NCBI GenBank assembly: GCA_041659205.1
Contig: JBAZYS010000001.1
Span: forward strand, 54,090 to 118,089
DNA: 64,000 bases
Source of the DNA: Minisyncoccota bacterium
GTDB lineage: Bacteria; Patescibacteriota; Minisyncoccia; Phycocordibacterales; UBA9973
Reading direction: 5' to 3'
The first letter of the stretch is position 1, and every line of letters begins with the position of its first letter. The translations under genes were made by a program, and so were the position numbers. Below are positions 18,224-56,043 of this stretch, in pieces. The notes under the pieces were generated by a model. The model saw only the letters and a program-made list of their open reading frames with translations. It did not search any database and was not told the DNA's origin.

Positions 18224-18300
18224 TGACTAAATATAAAGAAAAACAGCTTAAAAGTAAAGGTTTTTATGTGAAAAAAGGGCTGGTATTTAATATTATTTTT

Positions 18301-18309
18301 TGCTATAAT
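18301..18309 (+). promoter_or_regulatory. extended -10 promoter element (TGcTATAAT) upstream of gyrB, followed by a GC-rich palindromic leader
   Basis: tgctataat lies at 18301-18309. The leader contains the palindromes ctgtcagtagacag (18312-18325) and gattctgcagaatc (18357-18370), which ends 3 nt before the ATG. Confidence 0.35.
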
Positions 18310-18373
18310 TACTGTCAGTAGACAGCGTCGCGCCTCAATGGACAATTGCGTGACGTGATTCTGCAGAATCAAT

Positions 18374-31592: not shown

Positions 31593-32975
31593 ATGAAAAA
31601 TATAAAAATGTTTTTTCTTATTTTAATAGTTTTGTTTGGGATAGGGCATTCTGTTGCTTTTGCGGCAGATCCGACTATTTCCTCAATAAGTCCTACGACT
31701 GCACATGTAGGAGATACAGTTACCTTAACAGGGACAAATTTTGGTGTGAATACTATTGTTGAATTCTTTAAAAATTACACCGATGGTACAACTGGGTTTG
31801 TGGGTGTTGGTGTCCCGCTTCCAGGAAATACTTCAACTAGTTATGCACTTACTGTTCCTCCTGGGATAAAAGGCTTAGCCACTATTCGTATTAGAAATAT
31901 GTATTCAGATATTGTAAGCAATACCATTACTTTAAATGTATTACCCATAAGTCCCGTTATTGAATATGTCGGTTCAGGTGTTGCTTATCAGGTTCCACAA
32001 AACACTGCACGTCCTGATTTAACGGAGCTATTTTTACATGGTCAGAATATTGATTCTGATTCCGTTATCGTAATTGATAATCAGATAAATGTGAATTGGG
32101 TTTATTGCACTAAAAATTTTGTAAACGATACTTGTTTTTATGTACCTTCGAGTGTTAGTGCTGGGTCGCACTCAATGCATATTAAACAAAAAGATTCCGG
32201 CCTTACTAGCAATACTGTATCTTTGACTGTTATAGATAAACCAATTATTTCTTACATTTCAAAATATCTTACGGTTGGGGCGGCAATTCAAGCTTGTGGC
32301 ATAGGATTTGATTCGAAATCTGTTGCAGTCTTTGACGGGGTGACAGAAGGTGCGCTTTTGACTCCTGGGGTGACAGTTTGTGCTAATTTTAGTATTCCTG
32401 CAACATTGAGTGCTGGCTCTCATTCGTTTCAGATTAAACAAACTGATACGAATGCATTGAGTAATTTACTCACTATTACAGTTGCTGGTGCTGTCGCTGG
32501 GACACCTCCTCCTGTTGTTCCTCCAAAATCTGATCCAATAATCAAATCTCCTCCAATTACTCCTCCAGCAGAGTGTCTCGGTGGTCCCACTGCTTGGGGA
32601 TGTAATACTCCTCCCACCACCCCTCCAATCCTTGGTTGCTCCGGTGGAAACATCTTCAACACCCAAACGGGTTTACCCTGCGTAAATAATGTAGGCAATG
32701 ACAATCAGTCTCCATCAAACTTTCCTTCACAAAGTTCAGGATCTTCGACTTACGACTTCGGTGATAAAACACTCCGTAACGGAAGCAGGGGGGAAGCAGT
32801 TAGAGAATTACAAAGATATTTAAATGATAAATTAAATCTTGGTTTAGTATTAGATGGAAAACTAGGACCAAAAACAATTGCTGTAATCAAGATGTGGCAA
32901 TCTGATCATGGCTTAGTCGCTGATGGACTCATCGGTAAGATGACTAAAGCGCAGATGCTGGCGGAGGTGAATTAG
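31593..32975 (+). CDS. secreted IPT/TIG-repeat protein with C-terminal Cys-loop plus peptidoglycan-binding (PG_binding_1-like) module; paralogue 1 of 4
   Basis: Signal peptide. IPT-like repeats include ISSISPTTAHVGDTVTLTGTNFG. A Pro-rich linker follows. The C-terminus is LGCSGGNIFNTQTGLPCVNNVGNDNQ...RNGSRGEAVRELQRYLN...DGKLGPKTIAVIKMWQ...GLVADGLIGKMT. Confidence 0.75.
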   Translation: MKNIKMFFLILIVLFGIGHSVAFAADPTISSISPTTAHVGDTVTLTGTNFGVNTIVEFFKNYTDGTTGFVGVGVPLPGNTSTSYALTVPPGIKGLATIRIRNMYSDIVSNTITLNVLPISPVIEYVGSGVAYQVPQNTARPDLTELFLHGQNIDSDSVIVIDNQINVNWVYCTKNFVNDTCFYVPSSVSAGSHSMHIKQKDSGLTSNTVSLTVIDKPIISYISKYLTVGAAIQACGIGFDSKSVAVFDGVTEGALLTPGVTVCANFSIPATLSAGSHSFQIKQTDTNALSNLLTITVAGAVAGTPPPVVPPKSDPIIKSPPITPPAECLGGPTAWGCNTPPTTPPILGCSGGNIFNTQTGLPCVNNVGNDNQSPSNFPSQSSGSSTYDFGDKTLRNGSRGEAVRELQRYLNDKLNLGLVLDGKLGPKTIAVIKMWQSDHGLVADGLIGKMTKAQMLAEVN

Positions 32976-33059
32976 ATTTAAGAAACTACAAAAGCCACTC
33001 CAGGAGAGTGGTTTTTGTTTGTGATATAATATTTATATTAGTAATTAATATTAAATTTT

Positions 33060-34982
33060 ATGAAAAAGTTAAAAGTATTTCTTTTTGTGTTAGTTGTTGT
33101 ATTAGGAGGTTTCAGTTCCGCTTTTGCAGTGACTACACCTGCTCCTGTGGTAACTATTTTGCTTCAAGACCAGCATTACAAACTTGGTTCTGGAAATTAT
33201 ATACCATCAGAATGGCTCTCTACTTTGAGTGTTCCTCAAGACCAAGACCCTGGCCGTATAATGATTAAAGGGTCTGCAACAAATGCTACTAGCTGTACTT
33301 TTGTAGGAAATGATTGGTCTGAAATTAATTCTTCTTATGTTAATAAAGTAATTTCAAATTTTCCCGGTGAAGAATTTTTGGCGATGATGGTATCAAAATT
33401 TGGAGTAGCAAATGGTGGGATGTCGAAGATTGGAACATACACTTTCTCGGTTACTTGTACAGGGCCTGGGGGGACAGGAACAGATAGAGTTACGCTAAAT
33501 ATTGTACCTCCAAATCCAAACTTTCCTTCGGCAAAACTTACAGCTTCAAAATATGCGGTTAAAGATGGAGAATCTGTCACTTTATCTTGGACTTCAGCAA
33601 ATGCAAATTCATGTTCAGGTTCTGGAAGGTGGACTATCGCAGGCGGCCCACCATATAATTCAGGTGGACCATCAGGAATTCAAATTGTAGGTCCACTTTC
33701 TAGTTCTGATTCTCCTTTTGATTTTGGTATTGATTGTTGGGGGAGTGATGGACAGGGAAATACATTAGTTAGTCCACGAAGTATTATTCTTGTGACCGCT
33801 ACTTCCGATGCACCAGTTATAACAAGCATAGATACTTCTACTCCATCTATAGGAGATACTGTTATTGTGAAAGGATCAAATTTTGATTCAAACACTATGG
33901 TTATTTTTGACAATGGGGATACTAGAGCCACTCCAACAATTATTTCTTCAACTTCTCTTAGCTTCGTTGTTCCATCTCATACCGGTTCAGGATTTAGTTA
34001 TGCTTTTAATGTTGGTACTCACAAACTTCAACTTAATAACAATGGATCATTAAGTAACTCAATTTCATTTGAAGTTGTTCCAGTTTTACAAAATACTCAT
34101 CTTACTATTGTTGAACCAGGAGGGTATAGAACTTGGAAAATTGGTAGTACTCAAATATTTAAATGGAAAACAGAAAGAGTTCCAGCTACAGCTACTGGAT
34201 ATATTAGTTTTGCGAGTGCGGGATATGGTGGGGAGGCGGTAATAAATAAAAAAATTGCAGATAATATTCCTAATACAGGGAGCTTCACATGGACTTCTGT
34301 TGGTAGGGCCGCAGACGGTTCTTCTATCCCAGCAAGTATATATCCTTATGGATTTACTGTAGTTATGAATGTTCCAGATATTGGACAGAAGGTGAGTGAT
34401 TACAAGGATCGTACTATTATTTTAAGTGAAACAGCTGGAGAAGTTTCTCCAACTCCAACTCCAACTCCAGCTCCTATACCTCTTCCTGCCCAGTGTCTGG
34501 GTGGGCCTGGAGCAACGAACAATTGTCCTGTTACAACTGGTCAATTTTGTGGGGGGATAGCAGGCATTCAATGTACTACTGGATATTCTTGTAAGCTTGA
34601 TGGTTCATATCCAGACGCAGGAGGAACTTGTATAAAAAATGTTTCTCCTAATCCAGTCTTGGGCTGCTCCGGTGGAAACATTTTCAACACTCAAACGGGA
34701 TTACCCTGCGTAAATAATGTTGGAAATGATAACCAACCTTCAGGAACACCACGTTCTTATAATTTTGGTGATAAAACACTCCGAAGTGGAAGTAGAGGAG
34801 ATGCAGTTGTAGAGTTGCAAAGATTCCTGAATGATAAATTAAATCTTGGTTTAGTATTAGACGGCAAGCTTGGACCAAAAACAATTGCTGTAATCAAGAT
34901 GTGGCAAGCTGATCATGGCTTAGTCGCTGATGGACTCATTGGTAGAATGACTAAAGCACAGATGCTGGCGGAGGTGAATTAA
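33060..34982 (+). CDS. secreted surface protein with C-terminal Cys-loop plus peptidoglycan-binding module; paralogue 2 of 4
   Basis: Signal peptide, IPT-like repeats and a PTPTPTP linker. The C-terminal module DNA is about 90-95% identical to 32635-32975. Confidence 0.75.
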   Translation: MKKLKVFLFVLVVVLGGFSSAFAVTTPAPVVTILLQDQHYKLGSGNYIPSEWLSTLSVPQDQDPGRIMIKGSATNATSCTFVGNDWSEINSSYVNKVISNFPGEEFLAMMVSKFGVANGGMSKIGTYTFSVTCTGPGGTGTDRVTLNIVPPNPNFPSAKLTASKYAVKDGESVTLSWTSANANSCSGSGRWTIAGGPPYNSGGPSGIQIVGPLSSSDSPFDFGIDCWGSDGQGNTLVSPRSIILVTATSDAPVITSIDTSTPSIGDTVIVKGSNFDSNTMVIFDNGDTRATPTIISSTSLSFVVPSHTGSGFSYAFNVGTHKLQLNNNGSLSNSISFEVVPVLQNTHLTIVEPGGYRTWKIGSTQIFKWKTERVPATATGYISFASAGYGGEAVINKKIADNIPNTGSFTWTSVGRAADGSSIPASIYPYGFTVVMNVPDIGQKVSDYKDRTIILSETAGEVSPTPTPTPAPIPLPAQCLGGPGATNNCPVTTGQFCGGIAGIQCTTGYSCKLDGSYPDAGGTCIKNVSPNPVLGCSGGNIFNTQTGLPCVNNVGNDNQPSGTPRSYNFGDKTLRSGSRGDAVVELQRFLNDKLNLGLVLDGKLGPKTIAVIKMWQADHGLVADGLIGRMTKAQMLAEVN

Positions 34983-34992
34983 ATTAATATTA

Positions 34993-35023
34993 AAAAGCGC
35001 TGCCCGAAGGCGGCGCTTTTTTT
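34993..35023 (+). terminator. rho-independent terminator
   Basis: aaaagcgctgcc-cgaa-ggcggcgcttttttt. Confidence 0.65.
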
Positions 35024-35392
35024 GTGGGATGGCTCAAGCGACTAGCCTGAGAGGAGACTGAGAAAGGAGACAGCGTCCTTTCTTGGCAGAACGAGGGATG
35101 CTCATCCTGAGGTCATGAAGACGTATCCTTCGCCTGCGAGTATTGTACCGCTCCTTACCCGACTGCCTTTTCATTTGGTTTCTCCCAAAGAAAATTGTTG
35201 AGAAGGTGAACATTCCACCGCAATGGTGAAACATTCGCAAGAAGGACTTATTCACTTTTGAGTATACTCCCATTGGGATAAAAATTGCAATTGAATACAA
35301 TTTTATTAATTTAGGTTATAATTAATGTATTAGTAATAGCGCCACGCTTTAATGGACTTTGCGCGGCATAATTTCGCAAAATTAATTATTTT

Positions 35393-38206
35393 ATGAAAAA
35401 TATTAGAATGTCGTTTCTTGTTTTGTCTGTTTTGTTTGGAATAGGGTATGTGTTTACACCTATTGCGAATGCCCAAAGTGTTGATATTCTAGGTTGCGCA
35501 AACGGAAATATTTTCAACACCCAAACTGGTTTGCTTTGTAATAACAATCAAATATCTGGAACACCTTCGTCTTATGATTTCGGTACAGTGACACTTCGTA
35601 ACGGAAGTAGGGGAGAAGCGGTGAAAGAACTTCAGAGATTTCTAAATGATAAAGAAGGACTCGGTTTAGTGATAGATGGAAAGCTCGGACCAAAAACTAT
35701 TGCTGTAATAAAAAAATGGCAAGCTGATCATGGTTTAGTTGCTGATGGGCTAGTGGGCAAGATGACAAAAGCTGAAATGAATAATGAGGCTTTAGCATTG
35801 AGTACAAACAATAGCTTATCAAATACTAATGCTAATGCTAATAATACCAATACAAATAATAATAATGTCATTAATCCTTTACCGAATCCAATACCAATAG
35901 TTACAGTTGATACTACGGCAATCCCCGTTGGAACTGGAATTAATGCTACACCGAATTTAGTAAGTATTTGGGATCGCCCCTTAGATCATGTATATGATTA
36001 TAACGGTGATCGTAACTACGACATTACCAAAGATCGTGGCTATTCAACTGTAACTTTCAAAGGAGATATTACATTAAGTTCTGCTGTGAGTGGAGGATTT
36101 TTTGAAGTTTCTTCCATAAAGCTTGTGGCTCCTAGTGGTGATGCAGGGACTTGTCTTGCTACAAATTTTTCTACTAGTTTTAATGGACAGAAAGTAGACC
36201 CAAAATATTCTGGTGGGTTAGTTCCTTCTCAGAAAGTCACTTCACTTAAATGTTATTTTGATTTTAATCAAATAGTGCGAGCCTCATCTACTGGTATAAA
36301 TGGAAATAGTATTTTTTCTCTTGATTTAGTAGTTCAAAATGTCACTGCTGGTATTAATACGCGTATTCCTAAAGCTGTTACTGCTCAGGCATTTAGTGTT
36401 TCTCATGTAAAAAGTATTTGTTCTGGTACAGATACGAAGTTTCTAACTGCTGGCGGAGGTGGTATGTTCGGAGGGGCTCCTCGAGATCCATATGCTGATG
36501 AATGTTATTTAAATTCTGATGCACCAAACAGAATAGCAGTTTATGCTTTTGGTGCGAATGAAATAAAAAAAGTAACTATCAATGATCTTCCTTGTACTAA
36601 TTTTGCAGTTCATAATTCTGCATCAAGTTCCAATAGTTCAGTCTTGCTTTGTGATGCACCTGCAATACCAAAGGGTTCAAAAATTATTATTGCCGCTGAA
36701 ACTACTAGTGGATATAAGAGTTCTGCAACTTACTTAGAAGAAGCGATAACTTCAATGCATTCAAATGCATATTTAAATGTCGTAGGTAGTTATGTAGAAT
36801 ATGCCGCATCTTGGGCTAAAATTGCGCTTGACCCTACTAAAAAAACATTGACAGACCTTGCTTTAAAGTCAGGCACAGCTGATATAAATGCTACTACTTG
36901 GAATGCTTTTTCTAGATCCTTGTCTGGTTCTTATGTAGATGCGGGTACGGTTTACAGTGAGATAACTGGAAGTAAAATTCAACCAGGGGCACGTGTATAT
37001 TACGTCATGCGCTCAGGACCACTCCTCATGTATTATCCAGAGCAAAAAGATGGAGTAGCAGGACTTACTCGCCTTGGTTCAGTTATGGGGCAGAAATTAT
37101 CTGATGGTAGTTTCCGTTTACCAGACTTAGAGAGAGATATTGCAATTGCTGCCAATAATCATCATGAGCGCACTGTTGTAACTGGAGATATCACAGATAA
37201 AATTAATACAATTGATGGGATAGTTTTTAATCCTGATGGTAGTTATGGAGTGGTGAAGGATGTGTATCGCTTACATTATGTATATAAATGTAGTGCGGCA
37301 TCCTGTAGTCCTGTCGAAGATGCAGTATCAGGGACGACACTACCTTCAAACACAATTGGTATTACAACACCGAAAGCAGGATCTAGTGTTTATCGGGATC
37401 AGCTTACTCTTATTACAAGAGGTACTGGTGCCCAGCCAGCAAATGGACGTTTAGATATATATCTTGATGGAACTTTAATTCATTCAATTCCTGAAGGCGT
37501 TAGTTTTGCTAATGGTAGTTTTGGAAATATGAATACGGCTACTTTAACTCCAGGCTCCCATACAGTAAAAGTAAATTGGCTCGACTTAGATTTGACAGGA
37601 GATAAAGTAGTTGCAACTGATTCTGTCTCATTTGTGAAGAAAACATTAGATGAACTTAAGGCAGCAGTTAGTTTTACGATTAAACCTACAACAAATTTTT
37701 CTAGTCCATTCTTTTATCGTTGGTGTGACGGTAGTGGGTGGAATTTTAATGAGCCTGTTTATCTTATGCCTACACAAGACACTATAAATGTTCAATTTAA
37801 CGATGCTAACGTTGAAACTGGACTTAGTATTACTGCACAAATAAATAATAAAGATTTAGGTTCAGCCTTAGTATCAACTGAACCAGTAAAGTTAGTCACT
37901 TATCCTACGGTAATTGGAAAAAGTTCAGGAATATTAGGTAAAATTAATTTAATTATTGTAGATTCTTCCGGTAGAACAATTATGGATGCAAGTGGAAGTT
38001 CTCCATATGTCGTTACTCAAATAACACCCACTGACTGGGACCAGGCAGGTATTTCTACCGATAGTTGTGGACCAGTAAGCTATTCAACAAATCCACCTAC
38101 CCCATATCTAAACAGTAGCGGTAATGCTTGTTTTATAACACCAGCAAAAGAAATAGAATTATTTTCTAGTACAAAAACTCCTCAACAGTTTTGTGCTACA
38201 ATTTAG
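35393..38206 (+). CDS. large secreted surface protein with the Cys-loop plus peptidoglycan-binding module at the N-terminus; paralogue 3 of 4
   Basis: A signal peptide is followed directly by ILGCANGNIFNTQTGLLCNNNQ...RNGSRGEAVKELQRFLN...DGKLGPKTIAVIKKWQ. An Asn-rich low-complexity linker follows, then about 750 aa of unknown beta-rich domains. Confidence 0.75.
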   Translation: MKNIRMSFLVLSVLFGIGYVFTPIANAQSVDILGCANGNIFNTQTGLLCNNNQISGTPSSYDFGTVTLRNGSRGEAVKELQRFLNDKEGLGLVIDGKLGPKTIAVIKKWQADHGLVADGLVGKMTKAEMNNEALALSTNNSLSNTNANANNTNTNNNNVINPLPNPIPIVTVDTTAIPVGTGINATPNLVSIWDRPLDHVYDYNGDRNYDITKDRGYSTVTFKGDITLSSAVSGGFFEVSSIKLVAPSGDAGTCLATNFSTSFNGQKVDPKYSGGLVPSQKVTSLKCYFDFNQIVRASSTGINGNSIFSLDLVVQNVTAGINTRIPKAVTAQAFSVSHVKSICSGTDTKFLTAGGGGMFGGAPRDPYADECYLNSDAPNRIAVYAFGANEIKKVTINDLPCTNFAVHNSASSSNSSVLLCDAPAIPKGSKIIIAAETTSGYKSSATYLEEAITSMHSNAYLNVVGSYVEYAASWAKIALDPTKKTLTDLALKSGTADINATTWNAFSRSLSGSYVDAGTVYSEITGSKIQPGARVYYVMRSGPLLMYYPEQKDGVAGLTRLGSVMGQKLSDGSFRLPDLERDIAIAANNHHERTVVTGDITDKINTIDGIVFNPDGSYGVVKDVYRLHYVYKCSAASCSPVEDAVSGTTLPSNTIGITTPKAGSSVYRDQLTLITRGTGAQPANGRLDIYLDGTLIHSIPEGVSFANGSFGNMNTATLTPGSHTVKVNWLDLDLTGDKVVATDSVSFVKKTLDELKAAVSFTIKPTTNFSSPFFYRWCDGSGWNFNEPVYLMPTQDTINVQFNDANVETGLSITAQINNKDLGSALVSTEPVKLVTYPTVIGKSSGILGKINLIIVDSSGRTIMDASGSSPYVVTQITPTDWDQAGISTDSCGPVSYSTNPPTPYLNSSGNACFITPAKEIELFSSTKTPQQFCATI

Positions 38207-38264
38207 TATTATTAGTTAATCCCAGAAGTAGAGCGAAACCCACTTTTGGACAAGAAAATAAATT

Positions 38265-40442
38265 ATGAAAATATTTAAAGCATCGTTTCTACTTATCTTG
38301 TTTGCAGTCATTGTATTAGGTGGTTTTGGGGTGGTAAAAAGTGCCGATGCAAGTACTTTTTCTTTGTCGAGGACATCAATAAATTTGCAGTATGACCCTC
38401 AGGGAGGGAACACTAGTGCTAACAATGCCTCACAAACTATTGGTCTGACAAATACTACAGCTTCAGATGTTACATATAGTATAAATATGCAAACAGTCTC
38501 AGATCCTTTCGCTGGCAAAATTAATCTTCTCGTTAAATATAACGCGAGGTCTGCGACAACAGGGAATTGGATCGTAGCTAGTGCTACCGACCATGCAGAT
38601 ATGGTGATACCCTCCCAACAATTAATTCTTTCACCTGGGGAAACCGTTTATTTAAGTGTTTGGGGTGGAATTGGTAACACAAATCTATTGCTTTCTCCGA
38701 CGGCATTGCAACTTGTTTCAAATATTATATTTACTGGCAATTTCTCTGATTCGCCAGTAGCTATTCCTGTGATTTGGACCAAACTCCCATATATTACTCC
38801 TACACCCACTCCGACACCAACACCCTCAACAACAACACCTACTCTTTACTCTACCGAACCAAGTCCAGGAAGATTTATTCCAGGGCAAACTATAAAAGTA
38901 TACGCACTCGGCCTTCGTTCTTCTGCGATGAATTCACTTTATATTGATGGTAAAGGTTTTAATAATATGCAATCTTGGAATCCTACTGGAACAAACTCTG
39001 GTGTACCAAATTCTTATGAAACCCTTGTTGCACTTCCTCTTGATTTATCTGCAGGAGCACATATACTTCAAATGGAGACGAGCGACGTTGTAGAAAATTT
39101 TGGAAAAGTTTTAAGTAATTCTCTTCCATTAAATATATTTCGCACTCGCGCAGAGGCAGAAAATCCAGAAGACCCAACTGTCACTTATGTAAATCCAGCA
39201 TCTGCAAAGCCAGGTGATACGGTGACGGTATACGGTACAAATTTTCACAGTGATTCGTATGTGATGCTTGATCCATATTTAGATAGTTACTCTCGGGCAC
39301 AAATGGGAACCAGGGCTACTACCGTAACCCAGACACCGACTTCAATTAGCTTTATCGTTCCTACAAAAATAACAGCTGGTAGTATGTACCCACTTATTTA
39401 CAATTTACATAGAGTGACGGTATTTCCTTCAAAAAACAAACAAGCAACAACTGTTGCATACAATGGTAGTTTATTAAATCGCTATACAATACCGAACAAT
39501 GGAGGAGAATATAGTAATGGATACTTTAATATTGTAAGTGCGGTGACATCAAGTACTCCACAAGCACCAGTCATTACTTCTATTAGTTCTTCATCAATTC
39601 CACAAGGTGGCAGTGGTTCGCGAGACAATGCTCCTGCATCTGGTGCCACTGTAACGATTACTGGATCTGGATTTTCTTCAACCTCAGCTATTGTTGTTGA
39701 CGATGACTCTAACCAATATATTCCCGACGGAATGGCTGGTGTTACTTCCACGGGATTTCCAGTTGTTTCATGGACGACTACATCAATTACATTTAGGGTG
39801 CCGTCAAATATTGCAGTAGGGCAACATTCGATCCAAGTTGGTAGTTGTGGAAATCATGGCAGTCCTTGTGGTGCTTTCCTTAGTAATCCTATTTTAGTAA
39901 CTATCACACCAAGAGGCACTGCAATGGGTAGCACTCCAGGGTACGCGACTTCAAATTTTACACCTATACCTCCACTCACTTGTACCCTCCCACAAACACT
40001 TGTAAATGGCGTTTGTACAACTCCAAGTCAAACACCTCCACCTACCTGCACATTCCCAAAAACATTAGTGAATAATGTTTGTACAAATCCGACTTCAACT
40101 TCAACACCTCTCCCAATCCTAGGCTGTTCGGCAGGTAACATATTCAACACTCAAACAGGTTTACCTTGCGTAAATAATGTTGGTAATGACAACCAATCTT
40201 CAGGAACACCAGCTCCTTACAACTTCGGCACTTCTACACTTCGAAATGGGAGCAGGGGAGAAGCAGTCATGGAATTACAGAGATTTCTAAATGATAAATT
40301 AAATCTTGGTCTAGCAGTAGATGGGAAATTAGGACCACTTACAATCGCCGTTGTGAAGGAGTGGCAAACAGAGCATGGCTTGGTCGCTGATGGTCTAATT
40401 GGTAAAATGACTAAAGCACAGATGCTGGCGGAAGTTGAATAA
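38265..40442 (+). CDS. secreted surface protein with C-terminal Cys-loop plus peptidoglycan-binding module; paralogue 4 of 4
   Basis: Signal peptide, a PTPTPTPTP linker, IPT-like segments and the internal repeat TCT[LF]P[QK]TLVN[GN]VCT. The C-terminus is ILGCSAGNIFNTQTGLPCVNNVGNDNQ followed by the PG-binding motifs. Confidence 0.75.
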   Translation: MKIFKASFLLILFAVIVLGGFGVVKSADASTFSLSRTSINLQYDPQGGNTSANNASQTIGLTNTTASDVTYSINMQTVSDPFAGKINLLVKYNARSATTGNWIVASATDHADMVIPSQQLILSPGETVYLSVWGGIGNTNLLLSPTALQLVSNIIFTGNFSDSPVAIPVIWTKLPYITPTPTPTPTPSTTTPTLYSTEPSPGRFIPGQTIKVYALGLRSSAMNSLYIDGKGFNNMQSWNPTGTNSGVPNSYETLVALPLDLSAGAHILQMETSDVVENFGKVLSNSLPLNIFRTRAEAENPEDPTVTYVNPASAKPGDTVTVYGTNFHSDSYVMLDPYLDSYSRAQMGTRATTVTQTPTSISFIVPTKITAGSMYPLIYNLHRVTVFPSKNKQATTVAYNGSLLNRYTIPNNGGEYSNGYFNIVSAVTSSTPQAPVITSISSSSIPQGGSGSRDNAPASGATVTITGSGFSSTSAIVVDDDSNQYIPDGMAGVTSTGFPVVSWTTTSITFRVPSNIAVGQHSIQVGSCGNHGSPCGAFLSNPILVTITPRGTAMGSTPGYATSNFTPIPPLTCTLPQTLVNGVCTTPSQTPPPTCTFPKTLVNNVCTNPTSTSTPLPILGCSAGNIFNTQTGLPCVNNVGNDNQSSGTPAPYNFGTSTLRNGSRGEAVMELQRFLNDKLNLGLAVDGKLGPLTIAVVKEWQTEHGLVADGLIGKMTKAQMLAEVE

Positions 40443-41575: not shown

Positions 41576-41614
41576 AAAAACACCCTAAGCGAAAGTTTAG
41601 GGTGTTTTTCTTTT
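41576..41614 (+). terminator. rho-independent terminator
   Basis: aaaaacaccctaa-gcgaaagt-ttagggtgtttttctttt. Confidence 0.7.
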
Positions 41615-41725
41615 GTTGACAAAATAGCTTTTTTGTTATATTACTAATTTAGAGATATGCTCCTTGCCATCGTGGTAGCTCAGTTCGAGCCGGAGGAATA
41701 TCTTTTAAACGAAGGAGAGACCAAA

Positions 41726-41935
41726 ATGAATATCTGGGAACACAAAAGCGTAGGGGTTGGTACTGGCCCAAAAGAGCCGTGCCCCGGGAAAAGGGAGGAC
41801 TGCCACCTGCACAAGGAATCTTGGGATTTCAAGAACCGTTGGACCCCCAGGTTCAAGTTCGCCCTTTCTGCGTTGGTGGTGGTCTTTCTCGCCACATACA
41901 CGTTTTGGCCTTTCATTTCGAAGGCCTTCCGGTAG
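41726..41935 (+). CDS. candidate small membrane protein (70 aa) inside a GC-rich island
   Basis: A strong SD (gaaggagag) lies 7 nt upstream of the ATG. The peptide is MNIWEHKSVGVGTGPKEPCPGKREDCHLHK...FALSALVVVFLATYTFWPF, with a C-terminal TM helix. Its GC content is far above the genome background. It is followed by a 12-bp-stem hairpin. Confidence 0.35.
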   Translation: MNIWEHKSVGVGTGPKEPCPGKREDCHLHKESWDFKNRWTPRFKFALSALVVVFLATYTFWPFISKAFR

Positions 41936-41955
41936 ATTCTACCGGCCGCTCTATC

Positions 41956-41992
41956 ATGGCCAGCTTAACCCCCAGGGGACTAAGCTGGCCAT
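41956..41992 (+). terminator. strong hairpin (atggccagctta / taagctggccat, 12-bp stem) followed by an AT-rich tract; terminator-like
   Basis: The two arms are perfect reverse complements. The loop acccccagggga is itself palindromic. Confidence 0.45.
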
Positions 41993-42035
41993 TTAATTTT
42001 AAATAACTAATATTTGTGCTATAAATACAAAATAA

Positions 42036-42740
42036 ATGCGTTTCCACATAATTACAATTTTCCCAGAAATGTTTGATTCTTATTTAAAAGAGTCGATAAT
42101 TGGCCGTGCGATAAAAGACAAAAAGATTTCTATAAAATTTTATAATCCGATGAGTTTTTGTAAGCCTAAAGAGCGTGTGGACGGCAGACCATATGGAGGG
42201 GGCCCTGGAATGGTTTTAAAGCCAGAATTTTTTCTTAAAGCAATTAGTAAAGCTTTGACGCAGTGTTCTCGCTCGGGATCTCCTGCTATGCAAACTCGAC
42301 CACTCTCAAAAACACTACGCCATAGTTTAAAAGTAAAGATAATAATTTTTTCCCCATCAGGAAAAAAGTTTGATACAGCTTATGCGAAAAAATCTGCTCA
42401 AAAATATACAGATATTATTTTAATTTCAGGACGCTATGAAGGCATCGACGCTCGAGTTCAGAAAATATTAAAAGCAGAAGAGATATCAATAGGGGATTAT
42501 ATTTTGACTGGAGGAGAACTTCCAGCTATGATAATGGTCGATTCTATTTCTAGGCAAATCCCAGGGGTTTTGGGTAAATATGAGTCCCTAGAGGAAGAAC
42601 GAGTTTCCACGAGTGAAGTATATACTCGTCCAGAAGTTCTAAAATATAAGGCTAAAAACTATAGAGTCCCCAAGGTTTTGCTCTCGGGGCATAGAGCAAA
42701 GATAGATGAATGGAAGAATGGGAGGAATAAAAAAGACTAA
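42036..42740 (+). CDS. trmD: tRNA (guanine37-N1)-methyltransferase
   Basis: MRFHIITIFPEMF...GRPYGGGPGMVL...ISGRYEGIDARV. It contains an about 20-aa GC-rich insertion (TQCSRSGSPAMQTRPLSKTLRHS). Confidence 0.9.
   Translation: MRFHIITIFPEMFDSYLKESIIGRAIKDKKISIKFYNPMSFCKPKERVDGRPYGGGPGMVLKPEFFLKAISKALTQCSRSGSPAMQTRPLSKTLRHSLKVKIIIFSPSGKKFDTAYAKKSAQKYTDIILISGRYEGIDARVQKILKAEEISIGDYILTGGELPAMIMVDSISRQIPGVLGKYESLEEERVSTSEVYTRPEVLKYKAKNYRVPKVLLSGHRAKIDEWKNGRNKKD
42272..42306. repeat. GC-rich ~35-nt repeat element, copy 2 of 3, inside trmD, in a different reading frame from copies 1 and 3
   Basis: tcgggatctcctgctatgcaaactcgaccactctc aligned against ligA 3423-3457 and tgt 62161-62195. Confidence 0.7.
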
Positions 42741-42966
42741 ACCCAATAATATTTGACAAAAAGACTAAAATAGAGTAGGCTACTCTAGATTCATTGATTG
42801 AGTATCGGATGCAATCTCCGTTTGATTATTAGCTTTATAAGCGTTAATTAATAAGTGTCCGAGGTGGTTAATAAGAACTAAAAAGAAGTAAGAGAAAAGC
42901 AATCTTTCATCTGTTTTTCTTTTGTTTTTGTTTATTTTTTGTTGCTATTCTTAGGAATCAATCAGT

Positions 42967-45900
42967 ATGCATAAAGAGACAAATGAGGCAAAGCGTCCAA
43001 AGAAGTATTTTAGCAGGTATAAAAAACCTTTAGTCGAATTTCCAAATTTGATTGAAGCTCAAGTAAAGAGTTTCAAATGGCTCGTTGAAACGGGCATCGG
43101 AGAAGTCTTCAAAGAATTCTCTCCAATCATAGATTACTCTGGAAAAAAGTTTCAACTAGAGTTCACTTCATTTTCTTTAAGTGAGTCTAAAATTGATGAA
43201 AATAATTCTAAAATAAATAAACTTTCCTACCAAGGATTGTTAAAAGCGCGTGTAAAATTAACTAATAAAATTTTAGGAACTGTTAAGGAACAAGAAATTT
43301 TCATGTCAGAGCTTCCACTTATGACTGCTCACGGAACTTTCATTATTAACGGTGTAGAACGCGTTATCGTTCCTCAGCTTGCACGAAGTTTCGGAGTTTT
43401 CTTTACTGAATCAGAAACTAAGGGTACAAGGTATTTCGGTGCAAAGATTATCCCAGCTCGTGGAGTATGGATTGAAATAGAGTCAGAATCAGATGGAGGA
43501 ATTTACATAAGAATAGATAAAAAGAGAAAGTTCCCAGCTACCGCACTTCTTCGTGCAATGGGTTATGAGACGAATGAGGCTATTTTGAAAGCATTTTCTG
43601 GTAATGAAGTAGCGCAAGAAGCGATAAAGATTTCTCTAGCGAAAGACGGAGTGAAAAGTTTGAATGATTCTTATATTGAGATATATAAGCGTCTTCGAGA
43701 TGGAGATATGGCAACTGCAGATAATGCGAAAGAATTTATTAATTCCTTATTCACTGCTGAACGTTATGACCTCTCTCCCGTAGGACGATTTAGATTTAAT
43801 CAACGATTTGATAAATCTATGGAAGAGGACGAAATGGCACGCCGAATAATCTCTAAAGAAGATTTGGCCACTGTTATTTCTCATATTATTGCTTTAAACA
43901 ATACACCGCTTGCAAAAGCAGATGATATAGACCACTTGGGTCAGAGACGTGTGCGTTTTGTTGGAGAAATTCTTCAGCAAAAAGTTCGTACTGGTATGAT
44001 GCAAATAAAGAGAAACATTCAAGATCGTATGTCTATTATAGATGTTGATACTGCAATGCCTATTGCTATCATTAACCAGAGACCACTGCAAGCTCGTATT
44101 AAAGAATTTTTCACCACAAACCAGCTTTCACAATTTATGGCACAGGAAAATGTGCTTTGCGAAATGGAACACTTGCGTACTCTCTCAGCTCTTGGGCCCG
44201 GAGGTCTTACTCGTGAACGCGCTGGCCTAGAAGTTCGTGACGTGCATCCTTCCCACTACGGAAGAGTTTGTCCGATTCATACTCCTGAAGGTCCAAACAT
44301 TGGACTTATTCTGCACCTTTCAACTTATGCAAAAATAAATGATTTCGGAATTATTGAAACTCCTTATGTTAAAGTTAAACATGGGAAAATAACTGGAGAG
44401 ATAGTTTACCTAAATGCTCTTGAAGAAGAGAAATATAACATTGCACATGCTGGTATTCCTTATGACGAGGATGGAAAAATAACAAAAGATAAAGTAGAAG
44501 CGAGAATTAAAACAGAACCAGGTATGGTTTCTAAAGAAGAAGTTGATTATATTGATGTTGCTCCGAACCAAGCTTTCTCTATTGCTACTTCGATGGTTCC
44601 ATTTCTGGAACATAACAATGCAAACCGTGCACTCATGGGAAGTAACATGCAGAAACAAGCTGTTCCTTGCGTCTTGCCAGAGAAGCCTCTCGTAGCGACC
44701 GGTGTAGAAGAATTAGCTGCTAGAGATTCAGGTAGACTAGTTATCGCAGAGGCAGATGGTGTTGTAACTTACTTAGATGCCAAAAAAATAACTGTTAAAG
44801 GTAAAGACGAAAAACATGATAAAACATACACCTTAATTAATTTCTTGAGAAATAACAACTTTGCTGTTTTTCATCAACGTCCTTTAGTAAATGTTGGAGA
44901 TAAGATAAAAAAAGGTGACGTACTTGCAGATACAAGTAGTACTGTAGACGGACAGATTTCAATCGGCCAGAATATTTTCGTGGCGTTTTTGTCATGGTCT
45001 GGTTCAACTTACGAAGATGCGATAATTATTTCTGAACGTCTTGTGAAAAAGAGTAAATTTACATCAGTGTATGTTGAAGAATTCACTTGTGCCGTTCGTG
45101 ACACAAAGCTTGGGCCCGAAATTACTACTCGTGATATTCCAAACGTTGGAGAGCTTAAACTAAAAGATTTGGATGAAGACGGTATTGTTCGTATCGGTGC
45201 AGAAGTAAGAGAAAACGATATTTTAGTTGGTAAAATTACTCCAAAAGGGGAGACAGAACTTACTCCAGAAGAGAGACTCCTTCGTTCTATCTTTGCGGAG
45301 AAGGCACGTGACGTAAAAGATACTTCTCTCCGTATGGAACACGGAAAGCGTGGACGTATCATTGGAGTAAAGATTTTCTCTCGTGATTTAGGACATACTC
45401 TCGAAGCTGGAATAATTAAAAAGATTGTTATTGAAGTTGCCCAGATTAGAAATATTTCTGTCGGTGATAAGCTTTCAGGAAGACATGGAAACAAAGGAGT
45501 TATTTCAATGATTCTCCCTGAAGAAGATATGCCTTATATGGCAGACGGTACACCCGTAGACGTGATTCTTTCACCACTCGGTGTTCCTTCTCGTATGAAC
45601 TTGGGACAAATTCTAGAAATACACTTAGGAATGGCCGCAAATAGTCTAGGTTATCAAGCAATAGTTCCTCCATTCCTCGGAGCAAAACATGATGAAATTA
45701 AAGAAGAATTAGTAAAAGCAGGATTACCAGAAAATGGTAAATTAAAACTTTTTGACGGACGAACAGGTGAAGCTTTCCAGCAGGATGTAGCAGTCGGATA
45801 TATGTATATGCTTAAACTGCACCACATGGTAGAAGACAAGATTCACATGCGTTCAGTTGGTCCTTACTCTCTAATTACTCAGCAACCTTTGGGCGGAAAG

Positions 45901-46155
45901 GCTCAAGGTGGAGGACAGAGATTCGGAGAAATGGAAGTCTGGGCACTTGAAGGTTATGGTGCCGCTTATACTCTTCGTGAAATGCTCACTATTAAGTCTG
46001 ACGATATCTTAGGTAGATCAGCAGCCTTTGATTCTATTATTAAAAATGAAACCATTAGACCACCAAATTCTCCTGCATCATTTAATGTTCTGTTGAATTA
46101 TTTGCGAGGCCTTGCAATGGATGTCGATTTAAAAAAATCCGGAAATAACGAGTAA
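42967..46155 (+). CDS. rpoB: DNA-directed RNA polymerase subunit beta
   Basis: Conserved RpoB blocks are present (GPGGLTRERAG, NMQRQAVP-like, MVPFLEHNNANRALMGSNMQ, and others). Confidence 0.97.
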   Translation: MHKETNEAKRPKKYFSRYKKPLVEFPNLIEAQVKSFKWLVETGIGEVFKEFSPIIDYSGKKFQLEFTSFSLSESKIDENNSKINKLSYQGLLKARVKLTNKILGTVKEQEIFMSELPLMTAHGTFIINGVERVIVPQLARSFGVFFTESETKGTRYFGAKIIPARGVWIEIESESDGGIYIRIDKKRKFPATALLRAMGYETNEAILKAFSGNEVAQEAIKISLAKDGVKSLNDSYIEIYKRLRDGDMATADNAKEFINSLFTAERYDLSPVGRFRFNQRFDKSMEEDEMARRIISKEDLATVISHIIALNNTPLAKADDIDHLGQRRVRFVGEILQQKVRTGMMQIKRNIQDRMSIIDVDTAMPIAIINQRPLQARIKEFFTTNQLSQFMAQENVLCEMEHLRTLSALGPGGLTRERAGLEVRDVHPSHYGRVCPIHTPEGPNIGLILHLSTYAKINDFGIIETPYVKVKHGKITGEIVYLNALEEEKYNIAHAGIPYDEDGKITKDKVEARIKTEPGMVSKEEVDYIDVAPNQAFSIATSMVPFLEHNNANRALMGSNMQKQAVPCVLPEKPLVATGVEELAARDSGRLVIAEADGVVTYLDAKKITVKGKDEKHDKTYTLINFLRNNNFAVFHQRPLVNVGDKIKKGDVLADTSSTVDGQISIGQNIFVAFLSWSGSTYEDAIIISERLVKKSKFTSVYVEEFTCAVRDTKLGPEITTRDIPNVGELKLKDLDEDGIVRIGAEVRENDILVGKITPKGETELTPEERLLRSIFAEKARDVKDTSLRMEHGKRGRIIGVKIFSRDLGHTLEAGIIKKIVIEVAQIRNISVGDKLSGRHGNKGVISMILPEEDMPYMADGTPVDVILSPLGVPSRMNLGQILEIHLGMAANSLGYQAIVPPFLGAKHDEIKEELVKAGLPENGKLKLFDGRTGEAFQQDVAVGYMYMLKLHHMVEDKIHMRSVGPYSLITQQPLGGKAQGGGQRFGEMEVWALEGYGAAYTLREMLTIKSDDILGRSAAFDSIIKNETIRPPNSPASFNVLLNYLRGLAMDVDLKKSGNNE

Positions 46156-46173
46156 TAACAATAAATCAAAAAT

Positions 46174-49100
46174 ATGAAAACATTAAATACAACTGAATTT
46201 GATCAAATTGCACTACGTCTCGCATCTCCGGAGCAAATAAAGGAATGGTCTTTTGGAGAAGTTACAAAACCAGAAACGATAAACTATCGTACTGGTAGGT
46301 CTGAAAGAGGAGGTCTCTTCGATGAGAAAATATTCGGTCCTGAAAAAGACTATGAATGTTACTGTGGAAAATATCGTCGTATTCGTTATAAAGATATTAT
46401 CTGTGAAAAATGTGGAGTGGAAGTTACTCGTTCTATCGTTCGCCGAGAACGCATGGGCCACATTGAGCTTTCCACCCCCGTATCCCATATTTGGTTTTTG
46501 CGTGGGGTTCCTTCTAGAATGAGTATTCTTTTAAATATATCTGTCTCAGATCTTGAGAAGGTTATTTACTTTGCTGGTTATATTATTACAAAGGTTCATG
46601 AAGAAGAAAAAGAAAGTATTTTATCGAACCTTGATAAAGAATATAAAACTAAATTAAAAAATTCAGCAGATGATGATACTCGCGAGAAATTGAAAACTTT
46701 ACTTTCTATCACTAAAAAAGAAATAGGTGAAATCTATGAAGGAAAAGTATTAAATGAAATTTCTTTCCATCATTATTCTTTGAAATATGGTACTTGTTTT
46801 GAAGCGAATATTGGAGCCGAAGCTATTTACTCTATTTTCAAGAATCTTGATTTGAACAAACTAAAACTTCTTACAGAAAAGATGCTTGAAAAAGTGAGTG
46901 TTGCAGAAAAAGAGAAATTACAAAAAAGACTTTCTCTTATTCGTGCAATGAATTATGCCGGTATTCGTCCAGAATGGATGTTCTTGACTGTTATTCCAGT
47001 TATTCCACCAGTCTTGCGTCCGATGGTTGCTCTAGATGGGGGACGCCATGCCACCTCTGATTTGAACGACCTTTATCGTCGTGTCATAAATAGAAATAAT
47101 CGTTTGAAAAAATTAAAAGAAATCAATGCTCCAGACGTTATTCTAAGAAATGAAAAAAGAATTATTCAGGAAGCAGTCGATGCTCTTATTGATAACTCAA
47201 TTGCAAAACAAAATGATTCTGCTGCGATGAGTCAGTCTCAGAAGCGTCCGCTTAAATCACTTTCAGATAACTTAAAATCTAAACAAGGTCTTTTCCGCCA
47301 AAACTTACTTGGTAAGCGTGTGGATTATTCTGGACGTTCAGTTATTGTGGTTGGTCCTGAGCTTAAACTAAATCAATGTGGATTACCAAAACACATGGCT
47401 TTGGAACTTTTCCGCCCATTCGTAATTTCAAAGATTTTACAGGCAGAACTTGCTTTTAACATCCGCGGGGCAAATAAATTGATAGAAGAACGTCCTCCTG
47501 AAGTTTGGGCAATATTGGAAGAAGTTATTCAAGGCAAATATGTTCTGTTAAACCGTGCACCTACCTTGCACCGTCTAGGTATTCAAGCTTTCAATCCTAT
47601 TTTGATTGAAGGAAATGCTATCCAAGTTCATCCTCTTGTTTGTCAGGCTTTCAACGCTGACTTCGATGGAGACCAGATGGCTGTATATGTTCCTTTGCTT
47701 GATGAAGCACAATGGGAGGCAAAAGAATTGATGGCCTCAAATAAAAATTTACTTAAACCACAAAATGGAGATCCAATCGTGCATCCTCGTATGGACATGG
47801 TGCTCGGAAGTTATTGGATAACTAAATTAGTAGACGGGGAAGTAGGAGAAGGTAAATATTTTTCCAGTCCTAATACTGCTATCACAGCTTGTGATTACGG
47901 AATCATAAGTCTTCGTGCAAAAATCAAAGTTCTCGCAACTGATACCCATAAATATAAAAAATTTGGTGGAGAACTTTTTGAAACTACTGTTGGAAAACTT
48001 CTTTTCAATAGTATCTTGCCGAACGATTTTTCTTATGTGAATGATGAAATGACTCAAGACAGATTGTCAGCTCTTTTAGATGAGCTTATCGTTCATTCTG
48101 GAGTAGATAACACTCCTGCAATTCTAGACAAGATTAAAGCTTTCGGATTTAAGTATTCTACTATTTCTGGTACTACTTGGGGACTAGATAACGTTAAAGT
48201 TCCTGAGGAAAAGAAAAAAATTATTGAAGAAGGTAAAAAATTAGAAGAAGATACAGTTGCTCAATGGAGTGAAGGTCTTCTCTCTCTTGATGAAAGATAT
48301 CAGAAAATTATTGAAATTTGGACACAGGTTAAGAAAAATTTGGAAAAGGTTTTGCCTCAAACTCTTGATAAAAAAGGTTCTACCTATGACTTATTTACTT
48401 CTAAGGCTAGAGGTACGATGTCATCCTTAATGCAGATGACAGGAATGATCGGTCTTATTCAAAACAACCAAGGTAAAATTCTAGAATTTCCAATTATTCC
48501 TTGTTACCAAGAAGGACTTTCTCCGATTGAATATTTCGTTATTACCCACGGTGCTCGTAAGGGTGCATCGGATACCGCACTTAACACAGCGAAAGCTGGA
48601 TATTTGACCCGAAGACTTGTGGATGTTGCTCAAGATGTCGTCATTACCGAAGAAGATTGTGGTACGAAAGAAGGTAAAATGGTTAGTCGAGAAAATATTT
48701 CCGGAATTGAAATTCCTCTTTCTAAGAATATTCGCGGACGAGTTTTGGCAGGTGACTTAAAAGATAAGGATGGTAATGTAGTTTACAAGAGAGGTTTCTT
48801 AATCACTAAAGAAGAAGCTCACAACATTGAAGGAGCAGGTTTTACCGAAGTATTTGTTCGTTCTCCTTTAACTTGTAAGACTGTTCATGGTCTTTGTGTG
48901 ATGTGTTATGGTCTTGATTTAGGTAGGAATCATTTGGTGGAAGAAGGCGAAGCTGTTGGAATCATCGCGGCTCAAGCTATCGGTGAACCAGGTACTCAGC
49001 TTACGCTTCGAACATTCCACGCTGGAGGTGTCGCAGGAACAGATATCACGACAGGTCTTCCACGTGTTGAAGAAATTTTCGAAAGAAGAATTCCCAAGAA

Positions 49101-49785
49101 TCCTGCTATAATTTCTGAGACTGATGGAGAAGTGATTTCTATTACATCAAAAGATGGGAAAGAAAAAATAATTAAAGTATTGTCAGATAGTAAGGTTGAC
49201 GGTAAGGCAAATGAAATGGAATACCTTGTGGCATTTCGAAGAACTCCAATCGTTAAAGTTGGTGATTCTGTAAAGATGGGTCAATTGCTAACTGATGGAT
49301 CAGCCGATATTGCTGAAATGTTTAAACTAGGGAACAAAGAACTTGTTGAAGAATATATCATTGAAGAAATAAACAAAGTTTACGAACTTCAGAGTGCTTC
49401 TATTTCCAGAAAACACACAGAAATAATTATTCGTCAGATGTTTTCTCGAAGAAAAATAAAAGATGCTGGAGAAACTAATTTTTCCGCAGGTGATATTGTA
49501 GAAAATACTGCTTTTATTGAAGAAAATATGAGAGTCAAAGAGATAGATGGAAAAGAAGCAAAAGCAGAAATCGTTGTGCTTGGTATTACCGAGGTCTCAC
49601 TTCGAACTAAGAGTTGGTTGTCCGCTGCATCGTTCCAAAACACGAACCGTGTTCTTATTGAAAACGCTATTAAAGGTGGAGTAGATAGTCTCCGAGGACT
49701 AAAAGAAAATGTTATTATCGGACGATTAATTCCAGCAGGAACTGGTTTTAAAAACAAGTTTGTTAAAACGTCGGAAGAAAAATAA
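46174..49785 (+). CDS. rpoC: DNA-directed RNA polymerase subunit beta'
   Basis: A zinc finger (CYCGKYRRIRYKDIICEKCGV), the motif NADFDGDQMAV and the trigger-loop region are present. Confidence 0.97.
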   Translation: MKTLNTTEFDQIALRLASPEQIKEWSFGEVTKPETINYRTGRSERGGLFDEKIFGPEKDYECYCGKYRRIRYKDIICEKCGVEVTRSIVRRERMGHIELSTPVSHIWFLRGVPSRMSILLNISVSDLEKVIYFAGYIITKVHEEEKESILSNLDKEYKTKLKNSADDDTREKLKTLLSITKKEIGEIYEGKVLNEISFHHYSLKYGTCFEANIGAEAIYSIFKNLDLNKLKLLTEKMLEKVSVAEKEKLQKRLSLIRAMNYAGIRPEWMFLTVIPVIPPVLRPMVALDGGRHATSDLNDLYRRVINRNNRLKKLKEINAPDVILRNEKRIIQEAVDALIDNSIAKQNDSAAMSQSQKRPLKSLSDNLKSKQGLFRQNLLGKRVDYSGRSVIVVGPELKLNQCGLPKHMALELFRPFVISKILQAELAFNIRGANKLIEERPPEVWAILEEVIQGKYVLLNRAPTLHRLGIQAFNPILIEGNAIQVHPLVCQAFNADFDGDQMAVYVPLLDEAQWEAKELMASNKNLLKPQNGDPIVHPRMDMVLGSYWITKLVDGEVGEGKYFSSPNTAITACDYGIISLRAKIKVLATDTHKYKKFGGELFETTVGKLLFNSILPNDFSYVNDEMTQDRLSALLDELIVHSGVDNTPAILDKIKAFGFKYSTISGTTWGLDNVKVPEEKKKIIEEGKKLEEDTVAQWSEGLLSLDERYQKIIEIWTQVKKNLEKVLPQTLDKKGSTYDLFTSKARGTMSSLMQMTGMIGLIQNNQGKILEFPIIPCYQEGLSPIEYFVITHGARKGASDTALNTAKAGYLTRRLVDVAQDVVITEEDCGTKEGKMVSRENISGIEIPLSKNIRGRVLAGDLKDKDGNVVYKRGFLITKEEAHNIEGAGFTEVFVRSPLTCKTVHGLCVMCYGLDLGRNHLVEEGEAVGIIAAQAIGEPGTQLTLRTFHAGGVAGTDITTGLPRVEEIFERRIPKNPAIISETDGEVISITSKDGKEKIIKVLSDSKVDGKANEMEYLVAFRRTPIVKVGDSVKMGQLLTDGSADIAEMFKLGNKELVEEYIIEEINKVYELQSASISRKHTEIIIRQMFSRRKIKDAGETNFSAGDIVENTAFIEENMRVKEIDGKEAKAEIVVLGITEVSLRTKSWLSAASFQNTNRVLIENAIKGGVDSLRGLKENVIIGRLIPAGTGFKNKFVKTSEEK

Positions 49786-55352: not shown

Positions 55353-55356
55353 ATAT

Positions 55357-56043
55357 ATGGATAATAAAATTGATTGGAAAAAATATTTGATTGTTTTGCT
55401 CATTACTACCGGTCTTTTTTTTACGGCTATTTATTTAAGTAATTATTTTGGTAATAAGAAAATTAATCAACTTAAAACAATCCAAGATAAAATAGCGATT
55501 GATATTCTTTCTTCAGAAACACAGTTTTCTTTACTTTCTGAACTTTCTTGTAAAAATATTTCTGATTCTGTTTTTTCAAGTGAGCTTGGAGAACTTGGTA
55601 ATAAGCTAGCTTGGAGTCAAGAAAATTTAGGAGCAACAGAAGAGGTGTCGTATTTAAGAAAATACTATTCTCTTTTACAGATCAAAGATTACTTATTAGC
55701 TAAAAAAATTTCCGCTCGTTGTGGGGTGAAGTCTTCTTTTATTCTTTATTTCTATACGACAGCAGCAAACTGTAGTGAGTGTGAGAATGAAAGCTTGGTT
55801 TTATCAACCCTACGTGCAGAGTATCCAGAACTTCGAGTTTACTCTTTTGATTACAGTACGGACCTTTCTGCTATAACTTCGATGCTTCAAATATATAAAA
55901 TTAAAGATACAGCACTTCCTGCAATGGTGATTGATGACAATGTGCTCACTGGTTTTCATTCCATAGAAGACCTCGAGGCACGCGTGAAAGACTCCTTCAA
56001 GCTCCAAGGGATAAAATCCCCAGTAGAAAAAACAACAAAATAG
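55357..56043 (+). CDS. membrane-anchored thioredoxin-like protein (hypothetical)
   Basis: N-terminal TM. CxxC is ANCSEC. A later ALPAMVID segment is thioredoxin-like. Confidence 0.45.
   Translation: MDNKIDWKKYLIVLLITTGLFFTAIYLSNYFGNKKINQLKTIQDKIAIDILSSETQFSLLSELSCKNISDSVFSSELGELGNKLAWSQENLGATEEVSYLRKYYSLLQIKDYLLAKKISARCGVKSSFILYFYTTAANCSECENESLVLSTLRAEYPELRVYSFDYSTDLSAITSMLQIYKIKDTALPAMVIDDNVLTGFHSIEDLEARVKDSFKLQGIKSPVEKTTK

Follow-up and report, generated by a model that had tools for sequence, protein, structure and literature searches.

A GC-rich non-coding island between two surface-protein genes of a Paceibacterota bacterium, possibly a lineage-specific insert

Why should a block of GC-rich, apparently non-coding DNA sit between two surface-protein genes of a bacterium with an AT-rich and compact genome? 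The question is raised by a 64-kb stretch of DNA (hereafter the window; 35.8% GC) from a 239-kb contig of an uncultured Candidatus Paceibacterota bacterium, a member of the Candidate Phyla Radiation (CPR). On one side of the island is the terminator of a peptidoglycan-binding surface-protein gene, on the other the promoter of the following such gene, which starts at position 35393. An earlier note on this locus offered three candidate interpretations: a structured non-coding RNA, a decayed remnant of acquired DNA, or a regulatory leader of the 35393 gene. We tentatively favour, with slightly less than even confidence, the view that the island is a non-coding insert specific to this Nomurabacteria-like Paceibacterota lineage, foreign in base composition and placed in a hypervariable cluster of surface-protein genes.

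The gene neighborhood is as follows. Four co-directional genes for secreted proteins start at 31593, 33060, 35393 and 38265, and the product of each contains a PG_binding_1 domain. This domain directly follows the signal peptide in the product of the 35393 gene and is C-terminal in its three neighbours. The gene of RNase R lies upstream of the run on the opposite strand, while a small ORF, rpsP, a KH-domain gene, a small GC-rich ORF and trmD occupy its 3´ side. The domain scan took in every large ORF at 17081-42036 and left out several ORFs at 54108-63010; trmD, rpoB and rpoC, at 42036-49785, were identified by synteny with two related contigs (L003 and L006), which places rpoB and rpoC after trmD. 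No response regulator was seen beside the surface-protein cluster among the scanned ORFs. An SD-like motif is present upstream of only 6 of 39 window genes, so that the organism dispenses with Shine-Dalgarno sequences for the most part. The small GC-rich ORF at 41726 is an exception, and an ORF of 46 codons in the island, which we reject as a gene (see below), has a similar motif (GGAGA[G/A]ACCAAA(A)TGAA).

The small ORF before trmD belongs to a conserved unit of its own, found between the KH-domain gene and trmD in the window (41600-42000) and on the minus strand of two relatives (2030-2440 in L003, 1040-1460 in L004). Its parts come in constant order: a promoter beginning TTGACA, a leader of about 52 nt predicted as a three-way junction with CUCCUU, a strong SD, the small ORF and a terminator. 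The ORF encodes 66-69 aa, contains Cys and His and is of tail-anchored membrane type; its GC3 is 0.70 in the window versus about 0.2-0.3 in other genes. The unit matched nothing in Pfam or Rfam, and the gene caller skipped the ORF on L004. We considered homology of the island to this other GC-rich region and rejected it, as the local alignment was not significant and was equalled by 8% of shuffles.

The compositional shift that drew attention to the locus is real. GC content is 0.56 in 35000-35099 and at least 0.44 until about 35250, against a window mean of 0.358 (sd 0.07, 100-nt windows). Ordinary spacers have 26-30% GC, and tRNAs of this genome have 0.53-0.61. Within the window 22 stretches reach a GC content of at least 0.52, nearly all of them inside genes; outside long ORFs there are only the island, the tRNA at 4841-4927 and the small-ORF region at 41711-41990. 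The extent of about 300 nt that had been proposed holds in part. The sequence is GC-rich to about 35256, but the last 80 nt or so (35257-35335) have 26-38% GC (0.26-0.29 just after the island) and constitute the AT-rich promoter region of the 35393 gene.

The short repeats reported earlier had mixed fates. A near direct repeat is indeed present, GGTGAACATTC at 35205-35215 and GGTGAAACATTCGC at 35225-35238, and its arms double as the arms of a predicted 12-bp hairpin; three of its pairs are not Watson-Crick and become G-U only when the minus strand is read. The proposed hairpin ggatg-ct-catcc would have a loop of 2 nt and cannot form as drawn; its bases belong to larger alternative helices. The 11-mer GGGATGCTCAT does recur in the window, at 23026-23036 and not at 23021-23031. 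This copy is a chance match, since two or more matches were obtained in 13 of 100 shuffles.

The terminator that precedes the island was confirmed by RNAfold pair probabilities of 0.97-1.0, although a simple terminator scan has no entry for it. Read on the minus strand it is GCGCCGCC-UUCG-GGCAGCGC followed by U5. It ends the gene at 33060-34982 and could also be the end of a minus-strand transcript. Symmetric terminators with an A-tract and a T-tract are the norm between co-directional genes here. The features of the locus are collected in the table.

Table. Features of the island and its borders (z, folding z-score; MFE, minimum free energy)
Feature	Position	Strand	Details
Bidirectional intrinsic terminator	34992-35023		A5, stem GCGCTGCC / GGCGGCGC, loop CGAA, T7
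GC-rich non-coding island proper, no relative found	35024-35256		about 49-50% GC, peak 56%
Three further predicted hairpins	35033-35109	-	35087-35109, 35061-35083, 35033-35051; folding prediction
Arg-rich ORF of 46 codons, C-terminal part of the 88-aa ORF	35034-35174	-	SD-like GGGAG 7 nt before ATG; judged no gene
Unpaired CU-rich stretch	35052-35060	-	CAGUCUCCU; folding prediction
Predicted three-way-junction domain	35125-35247	-	closing helix GUCCUUC/GAAGGAU; hairpins 35208-35236, 35153-35206, 35136-35151
Predicted 12-bp hairpin	35208-35236	-	GAAUGUUUCACC-AUUGC-GGUGGAAUGUUC, probability 0.99; three G-U pairs, A-C mismatches on plus strand
Promoter-like site	35261-35290	-	TTGCAA-18 nt-TATACT, 9/12 matches
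35393 gene promoter, bounding the island on the right	35287-35322	+	-10 TATAAT at 35317-35322
5´ leader of the 35393 gene	35338-35392	+	hairpins 35341-35347/35361-35367 and 35369-35374/35379-35384
Predicted fold with terminator	35256 to 34990	-	z -4.45; MFE -94.3 kcal/mol, identical to centroid
Predicted fold without terminator	35024-35256	-	z -2.9
Predicted fold without terminator	35024-35256	+	z -2.0
Random 233-nt windows of the genome		both	z mean -0.55, sd 1.31; 4.7% at -3 or below

The island is not translated. The earlier note saw no credible ORF in it, and we agree: the plus-strand frames are full of stops, and the sole long ORF, an Arg-rich frame of 88 aa on the minus strand (35034-35300), does not behave like a gene in its statistics. 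In its C-terminal part, the ORF of 46 codons, GC content by codon position is flat (0.52/0.52/0.54), while host genes have about 0.46/0.45/0.21 and strong periodicity is seen even in the small conserved ORF at 41726-41935, GC-rich as it is (0.46/0.45/0.70). None of the 11 Arg codons of the 46-codon ORF is AGA, which makes up 33% in window genes, and its codon log-likelihood per codon is -0.44, compared with +0.26 +/- 0.06 for genes. A Pfam search of the ORF gave no match, phmmer with the 88-aa frame gave 0 matches among 1.84 billion representative proteins, and a word-index search of the frame against 5.8 billion proteins found nothing, not even the frame itself. Because that last collection contains the flanking proteins from NCBI, JGI and Logan, the ORF was called by none of these three pipelines. 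In an independent Logan assembly (L001) the gene caller placed no gene at the island. An assembly of the organism also exists in SRR18595301. Two more specific identities were rejected. Ribosomal protein L34, which an ORF that begins MKR and has RMS...GR might recall, was ruled out by Pfam, and a decayed copy of a neighbouring gene was dismissed after a blastx comparison with every ORF of the window and of L003 (L004 and L005 not included) returned only the self-match. The idea of a decayed pseudogene finds no support either, as the open minus-strand frame is similar to no protein searched.

How do relatives arrange the same locus? The proteins flanking the island, of 937 and 640 aa, have only peptidoglycan-binding-domain matches and no orthologues, and RNase R was therefore used to locate relatives. 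The RNase R of the source genome is nearest to those of Nomurabacteria-type genomes. The closest relative, L003, is a contig of 318 kb with RNase R 84% identical and the same gene order as the window: RNase R, surface-protein genes, small ORF, rpsP, KH-domain gene, small ORF, trmD and rpoB. It carries four PG_binding_1 genes, whose spacers of 75-88 nt consist of a terminator hairpin and a TGnTATAAT promoter only, with no island. The same holds for the junction of the preceding surface-protein pair in the window (32976-33059), 84 nt of terminator and promoter. The island thus represents an extra 230-260 nt or so. Four cluster genes are present in the window (31593-40442) and four in L003 (3685-9932), without clear orthology between them, and the whole cluster is absent at this position in L004 (RNase R 84% identical), L006 and L008 (about 80%). 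The region is therefore hypervariable. L003 also has a gene for an IS200/IS605-type Y1 transposase (12681-13343), close to RNase R but on its other side, away from the surface-protein cluster, and with no counterpart in the window; mobile elements are thus active near this locus in the lineage.

No homologue of the island was found in the related genomes or databases searched, and with none there is neither conservation nor covariation to speak for a functional RNA. The window self-search found no sequence similar to the island, which is single-copy in the 64-kb window together with 97 kb of related loci, and a covariance model built on the minus-strand fold recovered only itself in these 161 kb. 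Blastn against phage and plasmid records gave only AT-rich or terminator matches of 27-35 nt. Exact 19-21-mers of the island had two chance matches of 20-25 nt, in JGI metagenome contigs of about 60% GC, and none in viral contigs of IMG/VR. Degenerate-pattern scans with the 88-aa frame found nothing in JGI metagenomes and IMG/VR, and one match in GTDB species genomes (Nitrospinaceae, 43% over 30 aa), which we take as spurious. Exact-pattern scans reach close relatives only, and the two big DNA collections do not contain the source contig itself.

On its right-hand side the island gives way to a promoter that is easily recognized. The block at 35287-35322 is 89% identical over 27-28 nt to the L003 spacers before a surface-protein gene and before a small ORF, and aligns both with the TATAAT boxes of those spacers and with the region upstream of gyrB in the window. 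Since this TATAAT promoter lies downstream of the island, the island is outside the transcription unit of the 35393 gene and is not its leader. The real leader has a paralogue in the leader of gyrB (18324-18373). Positions 35304-35386 are 72% identical over 85 nt to 18291-18373 upstream of gyrB, and the 20-nt pattern AGCGYCRCGCYTYAATGGAC occurs only in these two upstream regions. The two hairpins are predicted for both leader copies, between which three pairs have changed in a compensatory way while the loop AATGGAC is kept. The shared leader has no Rfam match. The region upstream of gyrB is different in L006, a more distant relative.

Structured RNA was sought with the covariance models of Rfam 15. 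At gathering thresholds over the whole window they detected two tRNAs only, and no family matched the island. At E up to 10 over 34800-35500, a few matches touched the island, all of them far under gathering scores and mostly resting on the terminator hairpin; partial matches of the terminator region were only to the terminator parts of unrelated sRNAs. Among the families without a match are RNase P RNA, SRP RNA, 6S RNA, tmRNA, riboswitches, introns and OLE, ROOL, GOLLD, raiA and HEARO. ARAGORN likewise reported tRNA-Ser at 4841 and tRNA-Thr at 56120 but no tRNA or tmRNA at the island. Measured by the lack of conservation, which the earlier note had itself named as a refutation, its structured-RNA interpretation is currently unsupported.

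The predicted fold itself deserves a closer look. Its signal is modest, in the top 5% or so of genome windows, and at most suggestive. The minimum-free-energy structure of the three-way-junction domain equals the centroid, with helix probabilities of 0.73-0.99 in this single-sequence prediction. Three predicted minus-strand helices (35208-35236, 35087-35109 and 35033-35051) contain G-U pairs in places where the plus strand would have A-C mismatches, and one plus-strand helix (35092-35101 / 35123-35132) has the opposite pattern. Because the plus strand is also predicted to fold into a closed domain, of 195 nt with an 8-bp closing helix, the strand is ambiguous. Promoter-like sites occur in the region at chance frequency (three found, 2.9 expected), and the minus-strand site at 35290-35261 is accordingly weak evidence.

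Several explanations compete with the insert, and three of them we judge to be improbable in different degrees. In one of them the island would act in cis on the 35393 gene, either as an upstream control region or as a long leader, transcribed when RNA polymerase reads through the terminator. The direct repeats GGTGAACATTC / GGTGAAACATTC, 20 nt apart from start to start and about 95-125 nt upstream of the predicted start, could then be binding sites of a protein; their spacing of approximately two helical turns, the position directly upstream of the gene and the closed plus-strand domain would all suit such a role. Like riboswitches and ribosomal or T-box leaders (Rfam cis-regulatory families), the island is structured GC-rich sequence upstream of a gene. 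Unlike them, it is placed ahead of the promoter and behind a terminator, and has no Rfam family and no expression platform. No terminator or sequestering hairpin is tied to the start codon, similar genes in the window and in L003 manage with spacers of 75-88 nt, and no response regulator was seen beside the cluster among the scanned ORFs. The regulatory-leader proposal of the earlier note thus fails against the strong terminator in front of the island and the conserved TATAAT promoter with its leader of about 64 nt behind it, and cis-regulation in general seems unlikely to us. Production of a small, very basic protein of 46 aa from the minus strand (35174-35034) is more unlikely still. The frame stays open over the whole island, the SD-like GGGAG stands 7 nt before the ATG (notable, as such motifs are rare in this genome), and 41726-41935 offers the example of another SD-led small ORF which is GC-rich yet conserved. 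That conserved ORF shows the codon periodicity of real genes, whereas the island ORF is flat, has a negative codon log-likelihood and neither Pfam match, homologue nor gene call, and its start codon falls within a predicted stem.

Mobile or switchable DNA, be it a MITE or IS remnant, an invertible promoter, a DGR template repeat or a TIGR-type guide array, is what we consider least likely of all, to the point of being scarcely tenable. Its main attraction is a perfect 10-nt inverted repeat, TAAATTAATA / TATTAATTTA (34980-34989 / 35304-35313), whose arms are 314 nt apart and bracket terminator and island beside a surface-protein gene. CPR genomes are rich in DGRs. TIGR arrays, too, occur in CPR genomes (PMC12045711). 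Yet the inverted repeat consists of A and T only, its left arm runs into the stop codon of the gene before it, and it is one of 14 such pairs within 551 nt; it is probably a product of chance in AT-rich spacers. A MITE or IS remnant was rejected because the island occurs once in the 64 kb of the window plus 97 kb of related loci and has this AT-only repeat alone at its ends. An invertible promoter was rejected on the weakness of the inverted repeats, the lack of a recombinase among the scanned ORFs (54108-63010 not included) and the identical orientation in L001, and a DGR template repeat on the lack of a variable-repeat partner in the window self-search and of a reverse transcriptase among the same ORFs. 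The TIGR arrays of CPR bacteria and phages are, like the island, non-coding, rich in hairpins and closed by an intrinsic terminator (PMC12045711). Such an array is built of tandem units of about 36 nt with two alternating repeats, or of regular box C/D stem-loops, beside a Tas gene with a Nop domain (PMC12045711). The island, by contrast, has no 36-nt or other tandem period, no alternating repeats of 8-12 nt, hairpins at irregular spacing of 19-40 nt and no Tas gene or Nop domain among the scanned ORFs, both flanks included, so this candidate was dropped as well. A check by eye for parS sites and DnaA boxes revealed nothing in their support.

A more serious competitor, although we think it on balance improbable, is a stand-alone sRNA gene on the minus strand. 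Its transcript of about 265 nt would start near 35254 from the promoter-like site, which stands back to back with the 35393 promoter, and end near 34992 at the shared terminator. It would consist of the predicted three-way junction, four hairpins and the unpaired CU-rich stretch, and would serve either as a trans-acting RNA or as a regulator of the surface-protein cluster beside it. Klein, Misulovin and Eddy reportedly sought sRNA genes as GC-rich islands in AT-rich genomes in 2002. The island resembles orphan Rho-independently terminated sRNA genes in being GC-rich and non-coding in an AT-rich genome, in its length and in having a promoter-like site, a strong terminator and predicted stable hairpins. 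Its GC content is like that of tRNAs and not like that of spacers, and the spacers of this compact genome are otherwise shorter than 90 nt. The z-score is lower on the minus strand than on the plus strand, above all with the terminator included, the minimum-free-energy fold with terminator equals the centroid, and the G-U pairs of the three helices, the UUCG loop with its U5 and the distance of the promoter-like site all fit a minus-strand transcript. Because GC-rich composition has been kept in an AT-biased compact genome and no protein similarity accompanies it, the sRNA stays a live alternative. What separates the island from known orphan sRNA genes is the lack of conservation, covariation and an Rfam family, its absence from the syntenic L003, a fold that rises only modestly above the background of random windows of the same genome, and the ambiguity of strand. 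The promoter match is moreover of a kind expected by chance, and symmetric terminators are usual between co-directional genes. We regard it as a doubtful but admissible proposal that a private, independently transcribed and structured sRNA of about 265 nt, divergent from the surface-protein gene, tunes the peptidoglycan-binding cluster. Possible means are, for example, the unpaired CU-rich stretch or, alternatively, transcription that interferes with the back-to-back promoter.

The lineage-specific insert, by comparison, is the reading to which the absence of the island from the L003 spacers and from the junction at 32976-33059 points most directly. It agrees with a GC island that is real and non-coding, matches no Rfam family, tRNA or tmRNA and has no relative in the collections searched. 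Like other lineage-specific inserts or recombination scars in hypervariable surface-protein loci, the island occupies a variable cluster, is absent from syntenic relatives and deviates in composition. It differs from typical ones in that no donor, flanking target duplication or mobile-element gene was identified and in that its GC-rich composition has not decayed. Of the three earlier interpretations a remnant of acquired DNA fits best, given the foreign composition and the absence from syntenic relatives; no donor and no protein similarity were found. With no donor found, "acquired" is a conclusion from composition and absence alone. A random fragment of a foreign gene normally shows protein similarity, and useless GC-rich DNA in an AT-biased compact genome is expected to be rare and short-lived. 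The better-than-shuffled folding with its preference for the minus strand, the three helices with minus-strand-only G-U pairs and the bracketing of that strand by promoter-like site and terminator also count against a mere insert. A comparable cluster, finally, is present in only one relative, L003, and its genes are not clear one-to-one orthologues of those in the window.

We suggest that a lineage-specific insert of this sort would have come in by recombination or acquisition, in the very events that reshuffle the surface-protein cluster. The 35393 gene would itself be a mosaic, with its N-terminal PG_binding_1 domain and a gyrB-like promoter and leader, either copied from that gene or common to both. 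The island would then have no conserved function and, if transcribed at all, may yield a private minus-strand RNA that ends at the shared terminator.

Taken together, the meaning of the island depends on which of the two leading explanations is true. If it is merely an insert, it illustrates fast turnover of the surface-protein cluster between RNase R and rpsP in episymbiotic bacteria and is otherwise ordinary. To our knowledge, almost no regulatory sRNAs have been described in CPR bacteria, and a literature search found none. Were the island transcribed into a discrete RNA, the Candidate Phyla Radiation would gain one of its very few candidates for a regulatory sRNA, next to genes likely to be involved in the cell surface or in contact with the host.
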